Part shown: positions 15,911 through 23,018 of the stretch, piece by piece
Layout of the letters: each line of letters begins with the position of its first letter
How positions within the stretch are numbered: the first letter of the stretch is position 1
Assembly: GCF_027052235.1 (NCBI RefSeq)
Contig: NZ_JALUFF010000081.1
Coordinates: 5,136-69,135, forward strand
Length of the DNA: 64,000 bases
Reading direction: 5' to 3'
DNA from: Thermococcus sp.
GTDB taxonomy: Archaea; Methanobacteriota_B; Thermococci; Thermococcales; Thermococcaceae
Position numbers and translations under genes: made by a program
The notes under the pieces: generated by a model
The model's database searches: none
What the model was told of the DNA's origin: nothing
What the model saw: only the letters and a program-made list of their open reading frames with translations

Positions 15911-16837
15911 CTACTCGACGAGTTTCAGGAATATTTCCTCTAGGCTTGGCTCTTTGACCTGCATGGTGAGTATTTTCGCCCCCTGCAAAGCCACGAGATC
16001 ATGCAACTCCTCCCTAACATCCTCAGGAGCAACGACACGATATTTGTTCTCACCAAGGGGAGTCACGTTCCATTTAGCGGAACTCCAATCTACGGGCCTG
16101 TTTGTCTCAATGATTATTGTGTAACCCGCTTTCCTCAGGAACTCGCGCTTAATGTTCTCAATGCTGTCCTCTAATCGGAGTTTGCCTCTGACAATCACTC
16201 CAACAGTATCGCAGACCTCTTCCACGTGAGCCAGAATGTGGCTTGAGAAGAAGACAGTTTTGCCGGCCTTTCTCTGCTCCCTAATAATCTCCTTGAACTC
16301 TGCAATGCCCTTGGGGTCAAGACCGCTCATCGGCTCGTCGAGGATCAAAAGCTCGGGGTCATTGATCAAGGCCTGAGCGAGGAGGAGCCTCTGTCTCATT
16401 CCCTTCGAGAACTTGCCCACCTTCTTGTTCCTTACATCCTTGAGACCGACGAGGTCAAGGAGCTCGTTAATCCTCCTCCCCCTCTCGGCCTTCGGGATTT
16501 TAAACGCATCAGCGATTATATCCAGCGTTTGAGCTGGCGTTAGGAAATCCCAAAGAGTGGCGTTCTCGGGCATGTAACCAATTCTGGCCTTAACCTTGAC
16601 TAGTTTAGCCTCGTTAAACTCCCCGTCCCTGAAGACCTCCTCGCCGAAAAGCTCTATTCTCCCCTCCTGAGGAAAGATGAGGCCAAGGGTGCTGAGAATC
16701 GTCGTGCTCTTGCCTGCACCGTTTGGGCCGAGGAAACCGTAAACCTGACCCGACTTAACCTCAAGATTCAATCCATCCAAGGCCCTAACGTCCTTGTAAA
16801 CCTTAACGAGGTTCTCAATCCTGAGCATCACCATCAC
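15911..16837 (-). CDS. ABC exporter ATP-binding subunit
   Basis: GPNGAGKST, FSKGMRQR, LILDEP, SSH. Confidence 0.95.
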   Translation of the reverse strand: MMVMLRIENLVKVYKDVRALDGLNLEVKSGQVYGFLGPNGAGKSTTILSTLGLIFPQEGRIELFGEEVFRDGEFNEAKLVKVKARIGYMPENATLWDFLTPAQTLDIIADAFKIPKAERGRRINELLDLVGLKDVRNKKVGKFSKGMRQRLLLAQALINDPELLILDEPMSGLDPKGIAEFKEIIREQRKAGKTVFFSSHILAHVEEVCDTVGVIVRGKLRLEDSIENIKREFLRKAGYTIIIETNRPVDWSSAKWNVTPLGENKYRVVAPEDVREELHDLVALQGAKILTMQVKEPSLEEIFLKLVE

Positions 16838-17754
16838 CTCAAGTCCATCCTCCTGAACCTGATGAGGGCCAGCACGAGGTAAACGGGGATAAGACCCGCT
16901 ATAACTCCAGTTTGAGCTGGATTCTGTGAGAGGGCATGCTTAACCCCAAGGTATTCGACGGTATACGTGCCGTCGGGGCTGAACTTCGTCGTTTCCACGT
17001 CTTTGATAACGTCCAGCATGAGCACCTGCGGGACGTAGAAGAGGTACTTCAGGTGATACTCCCTGTAAAGCTCGTCGAGGCGCTCCTGATAGGCCGTTCT
17101 CTGCTCGGGGGAGAGCTTCGCGAAGTCTCCCCTCTCGTGGAGCCCGAACTCCTTATCGACCCTGTCCTCCGCCCATCTATCAACGATCTGAGGGGCCACA
17201 AGACCCGTGAGGAAAAATATAACAAGAGCCAGCCCCAAAGCGGTGTTGGAGGAGCGGACGAAGGTCGAAATGAGTAAACCCAGCGCTAAAAGCTGGAGCA
17301 TGGCCAGGAGAACCAAACCGTTGGCCAGCGTAAGGTCCGAGACGAGTTTTCCGCTGAGGGAGAGGCCGTAATGCTCTGTTATGGCAAAGGAGAGAAGAGT
17401 TGCGAAGACCATCGCAACCACTATGCTGACGCTCTGGCCAAGGAACTTGCCGAGCAGGTAGGAAACCCTACCAAGGGGCTTGCTTAAGGCCACCCTGATG
17501 GTTCCGTTTTCAAGGTCGGAGTTAATCCCCGTCGCTCCAGCCATGAGGGCGTATACTCCTATGAAGAGGAACGCACTGACGGCTATGTAGCCGATTAGGC
17601 TCGTCAGGAGGACTCCCTGGGGATCAGAGGCCCCTTCGAGGTTGTCCTTTACCTCCCTGAAGGCCATTGCGTAGATCAGCAAAATCAAAACCAGTATCAG
17701 CCAGAACTTCTTCGTTCGAAGGCCTTTCTTCATCTCAAGCTCAAACCCCCACAT
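16834..17754 (-). CDS. ABC-2 type permease
   Basis: ENGTIRVALSKPLGR...GKF, C-terminal FRRMDLR. Confidence 0.9.
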   Translation of the reverse strand: MWGFELEMKKGLRTKKFWLILVLILLIYAMAFREVKDNLEGASDPQGVLLTSLIGYIAVSAFLFIGVYALMAGATGINSDLENGTIRVALSKPLGRVSYLLGKFLGQSVSIVVAMVFATLLSFAITEHYGLSLSGKLVSDLTLANGLVLLAMLQLLALGLLISTFVRSSNTALGLALVIFFLTGLVAPQIVDRWAEDRVDKEFGLHERGDFAKLSPEQRTAYQERLDELYREYHLKYLFYVPQVLMLDVIKDVETTKFSPDGTYTVEYLGVKHALSQNPAQTGVIAGLIPVYLVLALIRFRRMDLR

Positions 17755-17758
17755 GCTA

Positions 17759-19276
17759 TCACCTCAGGTCTGCTCTCCTAAACCTTAGCCACGTAATGGT
17801 CAAGTAAGCAAACGTTGGAATGATCAGCATGCCCAGGTTACTTTCATGGTTTAAAATCTTATCTATCCCAGCAGGAGGAAGATTGCGCTTCTGAGAGAGC
17901 GCAGAGCTAAGGGCAACGTACTGAACCGAGGGAGCTGGGACGTACAGTGCCCTCCGGGCGAGCTCTCCCGAGTGCCCAAACGTAGTTACAAAGGCTATTG
18001 GGACTACAAAGCCCAGCAAGAAGGCGAGAACCAGCGAGAGGAGAAGTGCCTTTCTCCCCCTCATGAAGGCCGAGAGAAGGTAGCCGAGGGCCAGATACTG
18101 GAGGAGCGAGAGGAAAAGGAGGGAACCAAAGGCAAGGCCGAGTTCGAGGGTTCTACCTAAGGGAGCACCTAAGTGCAGGGCGTAGGCAACGATAAGGGCC
18201 GCGTAGAAAGCAGTTCCAATGAAGACCGCGAGGGTATCGCTGAGGAGCGTTCCCAGGAAAAAGTCTCTCCTCTTCATCGGCTTGCTCAGGAGAACCCTGA
18301 CGGTGCCGTTCTCAATTGCCGAGCCGATCGAGAGCGCCCCGAAGGGCAGAACCACGAAGGGCAAGAAAACGCCGTTCAGGGCCGAGATTACGGCATTCAA
18401 AAGGCCCGGAATACCGAAATCTGAGTGGTAATCCCCGAGCATGGTAAAGTTAAAGAATGCTGTCATGGTGGTCAGAGCGAGGAAAGCAATGAAGCGCCTG
18501 CTCTGAAGGCTCAGCCCGAGGAAAACGCCGTAAAGCCCGCGGGGGGAGAAGGAAAAACCAGGGACAGCAATAGACTCAGGACCCCTCAACTCCCTCCTCC
18601 GGAAGGCTTCCATCCCGACGAGCGACAGAAGAACGAAAACAGCCAAAAGTTGTCCAACGGCCTTATGGGAGACAGAAACGCTCTCGCCGATTGAAACAGC
18701 CCTCTCAAGGTAAACCGTCGGAATGAACGAGTAATCGGATTTTCCGAGGAGAAGGAGAACAACGAACGCCCCAAGCCCGAGGAAGACCCCGGAATCTCGG
18801 GAAGTAGCGAGGGGGATTAGGAGCAGGGCGATTCCAACAACGCCGACCAGCGAGAGCGAAAGGGCAAGGGAGCCTACGAGATAGTCTTTAACTTCGAAGC
18901 TGTGGGCTAGCATTGCAAGCGCTCCCGAGAGTGCAATCCCTAGGGTGAAAATTAGAGCAAGCTTTAACCCCTCGAAGGCCCAGCTTAGGAAATAGCGCCT
19001 CCTCGTGAGGGGCTTTGAGACCATCAAGATGACGCTCCCCCTCTCGAAGTCCGAGCCGAAGCGCGGGAGGAGAATTATTAACAGGACTGGTATGAAGAGG
19101 AACTTGATGAAATTCGGAAGCCATTTGACGAGCAAGTCGGCGGTTATCAGGTGACCGAGCACTTCGGAGGATATGTTGGGATAGTGAGTGGTAAATCTGG
19201 AAACGTCTATCTCGACCGCTATGGCCGGGAAGAGGAACATTACAAAGATTGTAGAGGAGTTTACTTGTTTTTTCAC
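17759..19276 (-). CDS. Tandem (two-domain) ABC-2 type permease
   Basis: Two copies of the E.G.....SKP..R motif and of the F.R.(D/E)LR ending; RBS GGAGGGTG before GTG 19276. Confidence 0.85.
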   Translation of the reverse strand: MKKQVNSSTIFVMFLFPAIAVEIDVSRFTTHYPNISSEVLGHLITADLLVKWLPNFIKFLFIPVLLIILLPRFGSDFERGSVILMVSKPLTRRRYFLSWAFEGLKLALIFTLGIALSGALAMLAHSFEVKDYLVGSLALSLSLVGVVGIALLLIPLATSRDSGVFLGLGAFVVLLLLGKSDYSFIPTVYLERAVSIGESVSVSHKAVGQLLAVFVLLSLVGMEAFRRRELRGPESIAVPGFSFSPRGLYGVFLGLSLQSRRFIAFLALTTMTAFFNFTMLGDYHSDFGIPGLLNAVISALNGVFLPFVVLPFGALSIGSAIENGTVRVLLSKPMKRRDFFLGTLLSDTLAVFIGTAFYAALIVAYALHLGAPLGRTLELGLAFGSLLFLSLLQYLALGYLLSAFMRGRKALLLSLVLAFLLGFVVPIAFVTTFGHSGELARRALYVPAPSVQYVALSSALSQKRNLPPAGIDKILNHESNLGMLIIPTFAYLTITWLRFRRADLR

Positions 19277-19327
19277 AGTACCACCCTCCGAGAGCTAGCT
19301 AATAATTTAAATAATAAACCTGCTCCA

Positions 19328-19348
19328 CAAAGAAATAATAAAAAAGCG
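19328..19348 (-). terminator. Oligo-T terminator after the precursor peptide genes
   Basis: Minus strand CGCTTTTTTATTATTTCTTTG begins 7 nt after the TGA of precursor B. Confidence 0.55.
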
Positions 19349-19354
19349 AGTGTG

Positions 19355-19534
19355 TCAAATATCAATCACTTGGCAATCAGGATCTCCTCCCCAGTCCCAG
19401 AAGCATCCGGTGTCTGTCATCTCACAGCCTTCTCCAAATGCACACTCAATGTAGCAGTTGTCACTGTTGCAGTTGTCACTAGTTATGCATAGAGGTTCAA
19501 TTGGATTGATATTCTTGGTTAACTTCTTGAACAT
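19355..19534 (-). CDS. Cys-rich RiPP precursor B, 59 aa: MFKKLTKNINPIEPLCITSDNCNSDNCYIECAFGEGCEMTDTGCFWDWGGDPDCQVIDI
   Basis: Translated by hand (below the ORF-track cutoff); RBS GGAGGTGA 6 nt before ATG; 7 Cys; leader shared with precursor A; downstream of an rSAM/SPASM gene. Confidence 0.9.
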   Translation of the reverse strand: MFKKLTKNINPIEPLCITSDNCNSDNCYIECAFGEGCEMTDTGCFWDWGGDPDCQVIDI

Positions 19535-19548
19535 TTTCTTTCACCTCC

Positions 19549-19689
19549 TTATACATCTATAATTGTACACGGGCTTTCTGAGGTGCAAATATCTATCAAC
19601 AGACAACTTAGGTCTCTAGAACCACAGTCAATATCAACAAAGCACTGTGGCTCCACCGGGTTGCCACCTGCGTTCAACTTCTTAAACAC
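19549..19689 (-). CDS. Cys-rich RiPP precursor A, 46 aa: MFKKLNAGGNPVEPQCFVDIDCGSRDLSCLLIDICTSESPCTIIDV
   Basis: Translated by hand; RBS GGAGGTGA 6 nt before GTG; 8-nt overlap with the 3' end of the rSAM gene; 5 Cys. Confidence 0.9.
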   Translation of the reverse strand: MFKKLNAGGNPVEPQCFVDIDCGSRDLSCLLIDICTSESPCTIIDV

Positions 19690-21133
19690 CTGCTATCACC
19701 TCCTTTGGTTTTTGGGTTTTGGCCTCATCGGACTCCTCGGCCCTCACCCCTCCCAGGGGTGAGCGTGAGAAGACCTTATTCAACCAGTCTTCGTCAAGAT
19801 TCGAGTAAAGCCAGGAACCCCACCTCACGAGAGCAAACATATAGGAGCAGTGGAACTCGTCGGGGAGAAACACGTCACCGTTGTAGTAGTGGTTGTTGTA
19901 TATACAGCCACCGCCGCAGTAAGCCCTTATCGGGCAGCTCGAACACTTTGGTCTCTTGTCCACAGTATGGTGAAGGATCTTCTGAATGAACTCGTTCTCC
20001 CACCTGAAATCATCAACGTGACCAACCACAAATTTTTCCATTCCAACGAACCTGTGGCAGGGATACATCTTCCCGTCCGCCGAAACCCCGAAGTAGCTCC
20101 TGGCAACACCACAGGGATAATGGCGGTAGGTGCCGGAGTAAATCATGTGAACCATCTCACGGAGCTTTGTGTAAACGATTCCTTTCTCCTTGTAGTGTTC
20201 AAGCTCGTCCTTCGCTATCTTTTCGAGGGCAGATTCAACGAGTTTAGCATGCTTCTCAGTCAGTGGTGTACTTGTGGTAGCTGGCTCAAGATGAACGCTC
20301 CTGAAACCAAAATCAACGAAGAATCTGTAAATCTCATAGTATCTATCAAGCTGCTCTGGCAGAACCGTTGCGCGGATGCTAACCTTAACGCCACGCTCAA
20401 GCATCTTCTCTGCATTCCTCGCTACAACATCAAAGGTTGGATATCCCCCACGTAGAGGTCTGTTGTTATTTTGAATGTCTCTAGGGCCATCAAAGCTTAG
20501 AGTCACCGTGAAGTTGTTCTCAAGGAAAAAGTCAATGACCTTCTCTGTGACGAGATAACCGTTGGTTGTTATGCTGAAGGTAACAACTTTATCGTGTTCT
20601 TTAGCCTTCTCTTTTGCATATTGAACCAGCTCCCGAATCAGCGGAAAGTTCAACAAAGGTTCGCCACCAAAGAACTGAATGTTAACGACCTTCTTCCCCT
20701 CTCTCATTAGCAGGTCAATGGCCTTTTTAGCAACTTCTGGACTCATTCTAGTATTGGGAGTGTGGTAAGTACCGCCATCACCATAACAGTAAACACAAGC
20801 AAAGTTGCAGTCTTCCATGACGTTAAGGGAAATGGACGAAATCTTGGATTTTATGATTCCGAGATATGGCTTTACGGGTGGCTTAGATTCATAGAATACG
20901 CGACGGAGATCTTCATCAGATTTAATCTCCTTTATCAAAGAATCCCAGTCAGATGTAGAGTATTCCTTTACAAAACGATCCTTGCCATCACCCCAGCCCA
21001 ACTCTGCCACAAACCTGCAGAAGTCATAGGTTTTCTTATCGACCTCAAATAGGGTTCCTGTAGGTGAATGCAGAACAAAGTACTTGCCACCAACGTGGAA
21101 GGTGTGCAATTCCGGTCTCACGTCACCAGACAT
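19682..21133 (-). CDS. Radical SAM/SPASM peptide maturase with N-terminal RRE-like domain (ranthipeptide-synthase type)
   Basis: CNFACVYC, FFGGEPLL, SITTNG, SPASM CG...YPCHRF...CSSCPIRAYCGGGC...C; N-terminal LHTFHVGGKYFVLHSPTGTLFEVD resembles a PqqD/RRE domain. Confidence 0.92.
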   Translation of the reverse strand: MSGDVRPELHTFHVGGKYFVLHSPTGTLFEVDKKTYDFCRFVAELGWGDGKDRFVKEYSTSDWDSLIKEIKSDEDLRRVFYESKPPVKPYLGIIKSKISSISLNVMEDCNFACVYCYGDGGTYHTPNTRMSPEVAKKAIDLLMREGKKVVNIQFFGGEPLLNFPLIRELVQYAKEKAKEHDKVVTFSITTNGYLVTEKVIDFFLENNFTVTLSFDGPRDIQNNNRPLRGGYPTFDVVARNAEKMLERGVKVSIRATVLPEQLDRYYEIYRFFVDFGFRSVHLEPATTSTPLTEKHAKLVESALEKIAKDELEHYKEKGIVYTKLREMVHMIYSGTYRHYPCGVARSYFGVSADGKMYPCHRFVGMEKFVVGHVDDFRWENEFIQKILHHTVDKRPKCSSCPIRAYCGGGCIYNNHYYNGDVFLPDEFHCSYMFALVRWGSWLYSNLDEDWLNKVFSRSPLGGVRAEESDEAKTQKPKEVIAGV

Positions 21134-21143
21134 TGTACTCTAA

Positions 21144-21188
21144 CACCTCCGAAAAAAAAAACTGTAGTTAATGTTTATAAGATTTTCT
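21144..21188 (-). promoter_or_regulatory. Own promoter and RBS of the rSAM gene, containing a T10 tract
   Basis: Minus strand AGAAAATC-TTATAAAC (21173-21188), T10 (21152-21161), GGAGGTG (21144-21150). Confidence 0.6.
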
Positions 21189-21212
21189 ATTCATTTGTAA
21201 AACAATAGAGTA

Positions 21213-22211
21213 TTAAAGTTTTTCTACTCTATCAAAACGACCAAAAATAATCAAAAACACATCCCCAAGTGATAGTTCTTCAACTCTAATCTGCATGGCA
21301 CCCTTTGAGGATAAAACCCTCACGAACTCATCCACCTCATTGATTTTAAGATAGGCCGTGACATGAGTGTAGTTCCCTTTGGTAAGACACCGAGCCATAT
21401 GCCATCTGTTGCATTCAACTTTTCCCTTCACAATCGCACTGACCTTTTTATCAACTGGAACCCTGAGCTTCCTGCTTATCTCCTCAGGCTTTCCCTCAAG
21501 GATGGGCCTCTTGTTGAAGAGTAGAACCCTGTCACTCAGCTTCTCTGCCTCCTGAAGGTCGTGGGTGGTGAGGATAACAGTCGTTCCAAAGTCCTGAACG
21601 AGGGTCATTATTGCGTCATGTATCTCGCTCTTGGTTATCACATCGAGAAAAACCGTCGGCTCGTCGAGTATGAGGTACTTCGGCCTGACCACTAGTGCGG
21701 AGGCGATGTAAACCTTCTGCTTCATTCCGGCCGAGAGCTTCTGGTACCATTCGTTCCTCTTCTCCCACAGGTTCAGCAGTTTGAGGGCGTACTCTATGCG
21801 TTCCCCCATCTCAGCCTCGGGAACCTTCCACAGCCTCGCGATGAACTGAAGGTTCCTGTAAACGCTCAGGCGCCACTGGAATACCCCCCACATGTCCCTC
21901 TCGCCAGTGAAAACCGTGAACATCTCCCTCGCAACTTTGCCGTGCTCCCTAAAGCTGTCGTGGCCGTCGATGAGCAGTTTTCCAGAACTCGGCTCAAGCA
22001 GGCCGTTGGCGATTTTACAGAGGGTCGTCTTTCCCGCACCGTTGGGACCGAGGAGGCCGAATATCTCCCCCTCCCTCACCTGAAAGCTAAGATTCACGAG
22101 GGCCGGAATCTCCTCCCTGGGTCTTCCGAGAAAATCACGGAGACTGTCCAGATCGAAGAAGCCCCCAAAAGGAGGTGGATAGTACTTGGTCAGGTTAACT
22201 GCCTCAATCAT
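21213..22211 (-). CDS. ABC exporter ATP-binding subunit
   Basis: GPNGAGKTT, LSAGMKQK, LILDEP, LTTH. Confidence 0.95.
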   Translation of the reverse strand: MIEAVNLTKYYPPPFGGFFDLDSLRDFLGRPREEIPALVNLSFQVREGEIFGLLGPNGAGKTTLCKIANGLLEPSSGKLLIDGHDSFREHGKVAREMFTVFTGERDMWGVFQWRLSVYRNLQFIARLWKVPEAEMGERIEYALKLLNLWEKRNEWYQKLSAGMKQKVYIASALVVRPKYLILDEPTVFLDVITKSEIHDAIMTLVQDFGTTVILTTHDLQEAEKLSDRVLLFNKRPILEGKPEEISRKLRVPVDKKVSAIVKGKVECNRWHMARCLTKGNYTHVTAYLKINEVDEFVRVLSSKGAMQIRVEELSLGDVFLIIFGRFDRVEKL

Positions 22212-22220
22212 CCAACCACC

Positions 22221-23018
22221 TCACACGTGACCCAATGTGCCAAGCTGCATCGCCTTTCTAACGCCCCACCTAAACGTGGCGATTCCTACTAAAAACATAA
22301 TACCGGTAGTTAGGATAAGGTTCACAAAACTCGGCCAGATTTGAGACACTGAATAGCCCCCGCCCATCGTCAGCCTGGCCATCTCAAGAATGTACCTCTC
22401 GGGGTGTATCTTGGAAATAGGCTGGAGCCACCAGGGGAGCGCGTCGGGCGGGAAGTAAAGACCGCTCACGAGCTGGGAGGTGAGGTTGAGGAACCAGTTT
22501 ACAGGATCCTGCCTCGCTTTAGTGGCAGTCCGAAAGCCCGCCGAAAAAAGTTCGAGGGCAAATGTGAGGGTGAAGCCAGCAAGGATAACTAGCAGGGCAC
22601 CGAGGTTGAGGTGAATAACTAAGCCGTAGAAGAGAACGAAGACTACCGTTATTAGGCCCATTATCATAAGGCTCCAGACGACATTCCAGGCATTTATTCC
22701 TACAAAGACCGCTACCATTCCAGCGGGGGAGGCATATAGCATCGGAAAGCTCCTCCCAATCAGGAGCTTGGAAAGGCTACCGCGCGGAAGGAATATTATG
22801 TTGTGCACGATGAAGCCTATCAGAAAGAACTGAAGGAAAGAGTTAGTTCCGTACTGCTCGATGTTCGCGTTTATGGTCACCAAACTGGCGAATATTCCCA
22901 TGACTGCAACCTGGATTAGAAGGCCTATCAGGTAGCTTACCACGTCCCAGCGGTAGCTGAAAAAGACCTCTCTCTGAACATTGAAGAACTCCCGGACTAT
23001 TTTAACACCGTCCCTCAT
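22221..23018 (-). CDS. ABC-2 type permease
   Basis: About 6 TM; SGLYFPPDALPWWLQPISKIHP motif. Confidence 0.88.
   Translation of the reverse strand: MRDGVKIVREFFNVQREVFFSYRWDVVSYLIGLLIQVAVMGIFASLVTINANIEQYGTNSFLQFFLIGFIVHNIIFLPRGSLSKLLIGRSFPMLYASPAGMVAVFVGINAWNVVWSLMIMGLITVVFVLFYGLVIHLNLGALLVILAGFTLTFALELFSAGFRTATKARQDPVNWFLNLTSQLVSGLYFPPDALPWWLQPISKIHPERYILEMARLTMGGGYSVSQIWPSFVNLILTTGIMFLVGIATFRWGVRKAMQLGTLGHV

Follow-up and report, generated by a model that had tools for sequence, protein, structure and literature searches.

Among the peptide-modifying systems described so far, that of freyrasin comes closest to the locus presented here. Its radical SAM enzyme PapB joins the sulfur of Cys to the C-beta of Asp or the C-gamma of Glu (PMC9413430), which is in agreement with what an earlier note on this DNA had said about PapB, tolerance of Glu included. 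PapB takes CXnD motifs with n ranging from 0 to 6 and makes in-line as well as nested rings, while an Asn in the leader of the precursor PapA has been proposed to be needed for binding to the RRE (PMC9413430). The substrate Cys contacts an auxiliary cluster of the enzyme (PMC10177961), and PapB is under development as a promiscuous catalyst of thioether macrocyclisation (PMC9413430; PMC10739248; PMC12373016). As read from the P. polymyxa locus, PapA has the sequence MLKQINVIAGVKEPVRAYGCTRSDFCLFCDTSDYCKNCDRNDLCIKGDE and adjoins PapB and ABC transporters. Cys thioethers are also formed in the SCIFF peptides (CteA/CteB of thermocellin and Tte1186a/Tte1186) and in QhpC, the gamma subunit of quinohemoprotein amine dehydrogenase, in which the related radical SAM/SPASM enzyme QhpD forms Cys-Asp/Glu thioethers during maturation.

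With respect to the Archaea, ranthipeptide-type clusters rank among the abundant RiPP classes in large surveys, which do not report products (PMC12144867). In the CrpA/CrpC system of Methanococcus voltae, a SPASM radical SAM enzyme installs ranthionine links with Cys ahead of the acceptor residue (PMC13692751). It is the sole archaeal ranthionine-installing enzyme that we found in the literature searched, and its substrate is a protein: CrpA has a mass of 28.8 kDa, as opposed to the 59 residues of the precursor peptide B described here, and belongs to a different gene family and genetic context (PMC13692751). Subtilosin-like sboA/albA/albC loci have been reported for Thermococcus celer and T. 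nautili (bioRxiv 10.64898/2026.07.27.741052). They resemble the present locus in their patchy occurrence and in the presence of an ABC component, whereas their precursor is of the sactipeptide type with three Cys and aromatic acceptors and precursor B represents a Cys/Asp family. This report of a different system was all that a literature search on Thermococcus RiPPs, radical SAM enzymes or precursor peptides returned; a search for a Thermococcus ranthipeptide yielded nothing, none from the Thermococcales turned up in the literature searched, and neither a curated model nor a paper on the Thermococcus precursor family was found in the databases and literature searched.

The window, i.e., the whole stretch of 64,000 nucleotides of Thermococcus sp. 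DNA that was analyzed, carries on its minus strand a unit of three genes in the order RRE-radical SAM-SPASM enzyme (19682..21133, 483 aa), precursor A (19549..19689, 46 aa) and precursor B (19355..19534, 59 aa plus stop codon), with ABC-2 transporters on both flanks. Precursor A has a GTG start, a leader as in B and five Cys, each followed by Asp or Glu, and its start codon and Shine-Dalgarno sequence sit inside the 3' end of the radical SAM gene. The last open reading frame starts with ATG and translates exactly into MFKKLTKNINPIEPLCITSDNCNSDNCYIECAFGEGCEMTDTGCFWDWGGDPDCQVIDI, with residues 1-15 (19490-19534, minus strand) assigned to the leader and residues 16-59 (19358-19489, minus strand) to the core. 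Its Shine-Dalgarno sequence, GGAGGTGA (19541..19548, minus strand), is located 6 nt 5' of the ATG and immediately past the stop codon of precursor A. Just 3' of the B stop codon follows a T-rich tract, TTTTTTATTATTTCTTT (19329..19345, minus strand), a candidate archaeal transcription stop to judge by its sequence, and past this tract, upstream of the next operon, lies a TATA-like element, TTTATTATTTAAATTATT (19301-19318). With this gene order, B would be co-transcribed, or is at least co-oriented, with the enzyme gene.

The upstream ABC system (21213..23018, minus strand) consists of an ABC-2 permease (22221-23018) and an ATPase (21213-22211), and orthologs that are at least 91% identical adjoin the cassette in relatives. 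The downstream system (15911..19276, minus strand) comprises a 505-aa ABC-2 family permease (17759-19276), of which Pfam ABC2_membrane_2 covers just residues 286-504, a further ABC-2 permease (16834-17754) and a DrrA-type ATPase (15911-16837). The G+C content amounts to 40-50% across the enzyme-precursor block vs. 52-57% in the flanks. Between the upstream ABC genes and the radical SAM gene there is an AT-rich gap of 79 nt (21134-21212) containing TTATAAA, a run of ten T and GGAGGTG, which may constitute a terminator/promoter boundary between these genes and the enzyme-precursor unit.

The layout is that of the freyrasin system, in which a short precursor with Cys-x-x-x-Asp motifs likewise stands beside an RRE-radical SAM-SPASM enzyme and ABC-2/ABC transporters. 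The leaders bear some resemblance to each other (MLKQIN..KEP..C in PapA and MFKKLN..VEP in the Thermococcus family), and hhalign aligned the family profile with PapA from residue 1 onwards, a weak leader alignment with a probability of 62% and E=7.7e-5. On the other hand, the host is an archaeal hyperthermophile, its enzyme scores below the PapB cutoff and falls into a separate clade, and each Thermococcus cluster contains two or three hypervariable precursors. The spacing differs, too: precursor B naturally combines CX2 with CX3 (CX1-CX4 in the family), all in line, and PapA has a partly nested series of CX3D motifs. The freyrasin model NF037957 (cutoff 30 bits), against which PapA attains 62.7 bits, matched neither B nor A nor 18 aligned relatives at E values up to 10, and none of the precursors was matched by any curated precursor model in Pfam or NCBIfam. 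When B was compared with all NCBIfam models, including that of the SCIFF precursor (six-Cys-in-45) if contained in the release, no match was obtained. The same applies to the CefA model of the Cys-every-fifth system CefA/CefB (NF038108 and NF038107), which gave weak matches in four of the 18 relatives (best E=9e-5).

That each of the seven Cys in precursor B has Asp or Glu at position +3 or +4 had been read from the DNA before, and both the positions and the types of motif proved to be correct. The Cys residues occupy positions 16, 22, 27, 31, 37, 44 and 54, forming CX3D at C16, C37 and C54, CX3E at C31 and CX2D/E at C22, C27 and C44, with Asp/Glu offsets of +4, +3, +3, +4, +4 (and +1), +3 and +4 in this order. 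When the core was shuffled at fixed composition, all seven Cys had Asp/Glu at +3/+4 in 116 of 200,000 cases (p=5.8e-4). The acidic nature of the core was likewise borne out, as residues 16-59 include seven Asp and three Glu, neither Lys nor Arg, and seven thiols, resulting in a net charge of about -10.

Word-index searching with B alone as the query returned solely the window's own protein, while relatives were recovered via genome, metagenome and profile searches. Genome G026 encodes an ortholog with 66% identity. Of its codons that differ from those of window B, 18 are synonymous and 19 non-synonymous; despite switches between TGC and TGT and between GAC and GAT, the ortholog keeps every Cys and every motif acid. 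A B protein of 85% identity is encoded on a syntenic metagenome contig, and a public 90% cluster provides three more variants, one of them labelled just 'hypothetical protein [Thermococcus sp.]'. In all six distinct B-type sequences, the seven Cys and the seven proposed acceptor acids are invariant (14 positions). Ring interiors vary, with NS, IL, GLF, SH or GF in the second ring, and two rings alternate between CX2D and CX3D. In a three-way comparison of B sequences, 14/14 motif positions but 15/30 other core positions were invariant (Fisher p=7e-4); for residues 16-47 alone, the corresponding figures were 12/12 and 5/20 (p=3e-5). By these alignments, constraint in the B core falls only on Cys and on one Asp/Glu located two to five residues downstream of each. 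Judged by the same comparisons, precursor B is a real gene under selection, with a hypervariable core behind a conserved leader (MFKKL[N/T]..NP[V/I]EP), ortholog identities of 66-85% being accompanied by full retention of Cys and acids.

The rule extends to the precursor family as a whole. Orthologs of the enzyme with at least 68% identity occur in nine of 97 Thermococcaceae species genomes, each together with one to three precursors bearing the leader MF[KR][KR]L.., and a further genome keeps an orphan precursor, bringing the total to 10/97. In a profile search of 133 genomes across the phylum, the family was confined to these ten Thermococcaceae genomes, and no more than 13 matches were obtained when 1.84 billion representative proteins were searched with a profile. 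Enzymes of about 38% identity from archaeal MAGs are accompanied by peptides with the same leader and motif, e.g., MHMKKLNGSSSGVEPLCVLDFCGNFDQDHCWLWDTC.. Among 18 peptides, Asp/Glu precedes the next Cys or the C-terminus for 114/116 Cys (null 63 +/- 4) and is present at +3/+4 for 103/116 (null 41 +/- 5), values as high as these being reached in 0/20,000 shuffles in either case, a significance that is overstated as the shuffles treat kindred sequences as independent. When 26 related peptides are considered, an acid stands before the next Cys for 169/171 Cys, with the next-best residue class arriving at 67%, and the two exceptions read C-x-x-C-D, which is the nested CX3D arrangement of PapA. Cys and acids are present in numbers close to 1:1 and all peptides end zero to three residues past the last acid, which speaks in favor of every Cys pairing with an acid downstream of it. 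As Asp is placed at -2 of the next Cys (63%) even more often than three or four residues after the preceding one, the direction of pairing is deduced from the C-terminal Cys-x2-3-Asp tails and from analogy.

The enzyme matches Radical_SAM and SPASM in Pfam and is 89% identical to a protein from T. celericrescens. Its best NCBIfam model is that of PapB, NF047865, with 288.9 bits for the full protein, which is below the equivalog cutoff of 340 bits; P. polymyxa PapB itself attains 473.6 bits. The QhpD model comes third (273.3 bits, cutoff 453), and scores below the respective cutoffs were also obtained with the SCIFF maturase model TIGR03974 (247.3 bits, cutoff 425) and with the CefB model (123 bits, cutoff 600). 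For the catalytic region alone, the scores were 290.6 bits for PapB, 269.6 for nif11-like, 240.4 for QhpD and 229.3 for SCIFF. A direct BLASTP comparison with genuine P. polymyxa PapB resulted in 32% identity over 94% of the length. In an alignment of 42 sequences, the CX3CX2C cysteines C109, C113 and C116 as well as the SPASM cysteines C341, C359, C397, C400, C406, C410 and C429 are invariant. The maximum-likelihood tree derived from this set places the Thermococcus orthologs and a Thermococcus paralog in a starred clade of their own, apart from the named PapB proteins and from the archaeal MAG clade, with a deep branching order that allows either PapB or the MAG clade as the nearest outgroup. 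Given the score below the cutoff and the separate clade, the enzyme is PapB-like in sequence and stands outside the curated PapB equivalog.

The AlphaFold2 model of the enzyme (pLDDT 89.4) comprises an RRE-like N-terminal part of three strands and three helices, followed by a radical SAM barrel and a SPASM domain, and its top fold match in the PDB is CteB (5WGG; TM 0.79/0.86, 2.8 A). The SCIFF systems thus share the three-domain enzyme fold and, as predicted here, thioether formation at Cys, but SCIFF peptides are highly conserved whereas the Thermococcus cores are hypervariable. As regards QhpC, dehydrogenase subunit genes were not found in the Thermococcus cluster, where ABC transporters are the only neighbors, and in contrast to QhpC the substrate would be a small leader-bearing peptide with predicted ABC export. 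With a predicted RRE/SPASM radical SAM enzyme encoded beside a leader-bearing precursor, the locus would belong to the ranthipeptides at the level of the class. The last 26 residues of the enzyme (458-483; 19682-19760) are predicted to be disordered with pLDDT <30. Since this tail overlaps the start of precursor A and its Shine-Dalgarno sequence, translation signals may have shaped it, not protein function.

Altogether, a PapB-like neighboring enzyme, 14 invariant motif residues and the 169/171 rule support the reading of B as a PapB-type substrate. We consider it probable, on grounds of sequence and analogy, that B is the second of two precursors of a Thermococcaceae ranthipeptide-type RiPP cluster in which Cys-Asp/Glu thioethers are formed, and very likely that it is a genuine substrate of the adjacent enzyme; the formation of all seven rings in line is less certain than that of such thioethers as such. 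By analogy with PapB, CteB and Tte1186, the leader would dock on the N-terminal RRE of the enzyme and each Cys thiolate would bind an auxiliary Fe-S cluster. A 5'-deoxyadenosyl radical would take hydrogen from the C-beta of Asp or the C-gamma of Glu, and the sulfur would capture the carbon radical with a loss of 2 Da per link. In B, up to seven in-line rings of four to five residues could arise in this way (C16-D20, C22-D25, C27-E30, C31-E35, C37-D41, C44-D47 and C54-D58), corresponding to a total change in mass of -14 Da; with the carboxylates retained, the product would still be strongly anionic. It would probably be exported by an adjacent ABC-2 transporter, and its role might be that of a signal or of a peptide used in antagonism. 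The interpretation offered in the earlier note is thus strongly backed by the genetic context and the comparisons insofar as it proposed a PapB-type substrate with up to seven small rings and -14 Da, though not in its idea of growth via a 12-nt repeat (see below).

Family assignment leaves the chemistry unfixed as the models of SCIFF, nif11 and QhpD trail that of PapB by 20-60 bits only, and the PDB entry of the closest solved structure, CteB, is titled as sactipeptide work. The enzyme might then link Cys elsewhere, i.e., to an alpha-carbon in a sactionine, to the acid's own backbone or to a different acceptor, and the acids would serve recognition, solubility or metal binding. We regard this as unlikely, since the positions constrained beyond Cys are one acid per Cys at PapA-like spacing and since PapB and QhpD, both enzymes with Asp/Glu as acceptors, are among the three best models. 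In typical sactipeptides, Cys and acceptors are found in opposite halves of the molecule, a layout that is not seen here.

With regard to the leader, Asn occupies the aligned position 6 in PapA and in five of the six B-type sequences, whereas window B carries Thr there. If the exchange of Asn for Thr, unique among the six B-type sequences, weakened binding to the RRE, window B would be a poorly processed or decaying extra precursor and only A would be matured efficiently. B-type genes do indeed decay, as exemplified by a pseudogene with stops in genome G022, and genome G004 retains just an orphan precursor. However, some PapB substrates are reported to be modified independently of the leader (PMC12715619), and T or G is also present at position 6 of other, seemingly intact second-position precursors. 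Together with the intact open reading frame of window B, its perfect Shine-Dalgarno sequence and the presence of all 14 motif residues, this makes a decaying precursor rather improbable.

Hyperthermophilic archaea can form intracellular disulfides, and a core so acidic and rich in thiols would chelate metals. Nevertheless, and although the product of the archaeal CrpA has likewise been proposed to bind metals (PMC13692751), a Cys/Asp-rich metal-binding or disulfide peptide beside a radical SAM enzyme with some other function, e.g., epimerisation or C-C bond formation, is hardly probable, as an odd number of Cys makes full pairing impossible, the top enzyme models all represent thioether-forming maturases, and one acid per Cys at short fixed spacing is unexpected for disulfide knots.

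The micro-duplication in precursor B that had been recorded previously is present: the 12-mer GCAGTTGTCACT occurs in exact copies at 19454-19465 and 19469-19480 (span 19454..19480, period 15 nt), both of which encode SDNC on the minus strand as AGTGACAACTGC. When codons were shuffled, an exact in-frame repeat reached 12 nt in 0.2% of cases, and among 18 family genes that of window B is the longest. At the two repeat positions, B-type orthologs have ITTDNC-ILDNC, ITSDNC-GLFDNC, ITTDNC-SHDNC or VFFDNC-GFDIC. The exact DNA repeat is absent from the orthologs, with in-frame repeats in that of G026 amounting to 5 nt at most, and relative to the closest ortholog both units of the window are altered in concert to AGT GAC AAC TGC. 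A recent gain of a unit was considered and rejected, as the aligned orthologs likewise show one unit at each of the two positions, along with seven Cys that correspond to those of window B. Since they already possess both units, the repeat in window B is, on this alignment, a lineage-specific homogenisation of about 12 nt that added no ring. The proposal of a core expanding by motif duplication therefore does not apply to the 12-nt repeat, whereas at greater distance the number of units does differ: the more distant relative P0138 has six Cys, yet shares CAFGEGC and a CQV-type tail with B, and numbers of Cys range from five to eight across the precursor family.

In two relatives, G026 (L002, 1640-1800) and G022 (L003, 400-560), approximately 110 nt from the 3' end of the radical SAM gene, Shine-Dalgarno sequence and GTG included, are found once more in front of the B-type gene. 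The copied tail implies that B was once the first gene after the enzyme, and it points to cassettes being shuffled via recombination within the enzyme tail and the leader, both of which are conserved. The orphan precursor in G004 (C44; L034/L073) is near-identical to the second precursor of G097, has no radical SAM ortholog nearby and is flanked by fragments of the N-terminus of the 505-aa permease; G004:C44 looks like a decayed locus. In G073 (L072, G073:C1:543000-555000), the flanking ABC modules are the same (identities of 91% and 75%), but the cassette between them is another one. It encodes an unrelated radical SAM/SPASM protein of 399 aa, two short peptides rich in Cys, MMEKPEYELPKVRVLSEEGVQPEGCFGGSISDPCCND and MEKSKYEPPKVISLSEDDCEPTGCPGGCINAQCCFD, an 88-aa open reading frame that appears PqqD-like by eye, and a MacB-type ABC system. 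The slot between the two ABC modules (window 15911-23018) looks like a swap site.

The downstream ABC module was also considered as a dedicated immunity system or partner of B. Homologues of the 505-aa permease are present in 22/97 Thermococcaceae genomes (approximately 15 at full length, the rest as fragments), and occurrence in many genomes without the radical SAM cassette weakens this idea and indicates that the permease is no dedicated partner of precursor B.

The patchy distribution (10/97), the hypervariable cores, the pseudogenes and the swapping of cassettes beside ABC transporters suggest that hyperthermophilic archaea compete or signal by means of peptides, a barely explored field. 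It is conceivable, albeit rather doubtful, that the precursors are diversifying cassettes of an archaeal antagonism/immunity system, in which one promiscuous hyperthermophilic maturase would serve hypervariable thioether-stapled cores, with recombination at the conserved leader and the radical SAM 3' end and a chromosomal slot between two conserved ABC modules, which is occupied by an unrelated radical SAM peptide cassette in other Thermococcus species. If this were true, B-type peptides with seven rings in line would represent heat-stable 'archaeocins' of vent communities. As a relative of PapB from a hyperthermophile whose natural substrates span CX1-CX4, Asp and Glu as acceptors and five to eight predicted rings per peptide, the Thermococcus enzyme would be useful as a thermostable catalyst and would document the tolerance of such enzymes in nature. 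In addition, a paralogous radical SAM/SPASM family of about 40% identity in Thermococcus (L023, L030 and L031) adjoins 48-aa peptides of the type MEFEVVNPGD..CGVLD..CPFPED..CWWPED..CYRPE, which feature four C-x3-[DE] motifs behind a leader unlike that of the B family.
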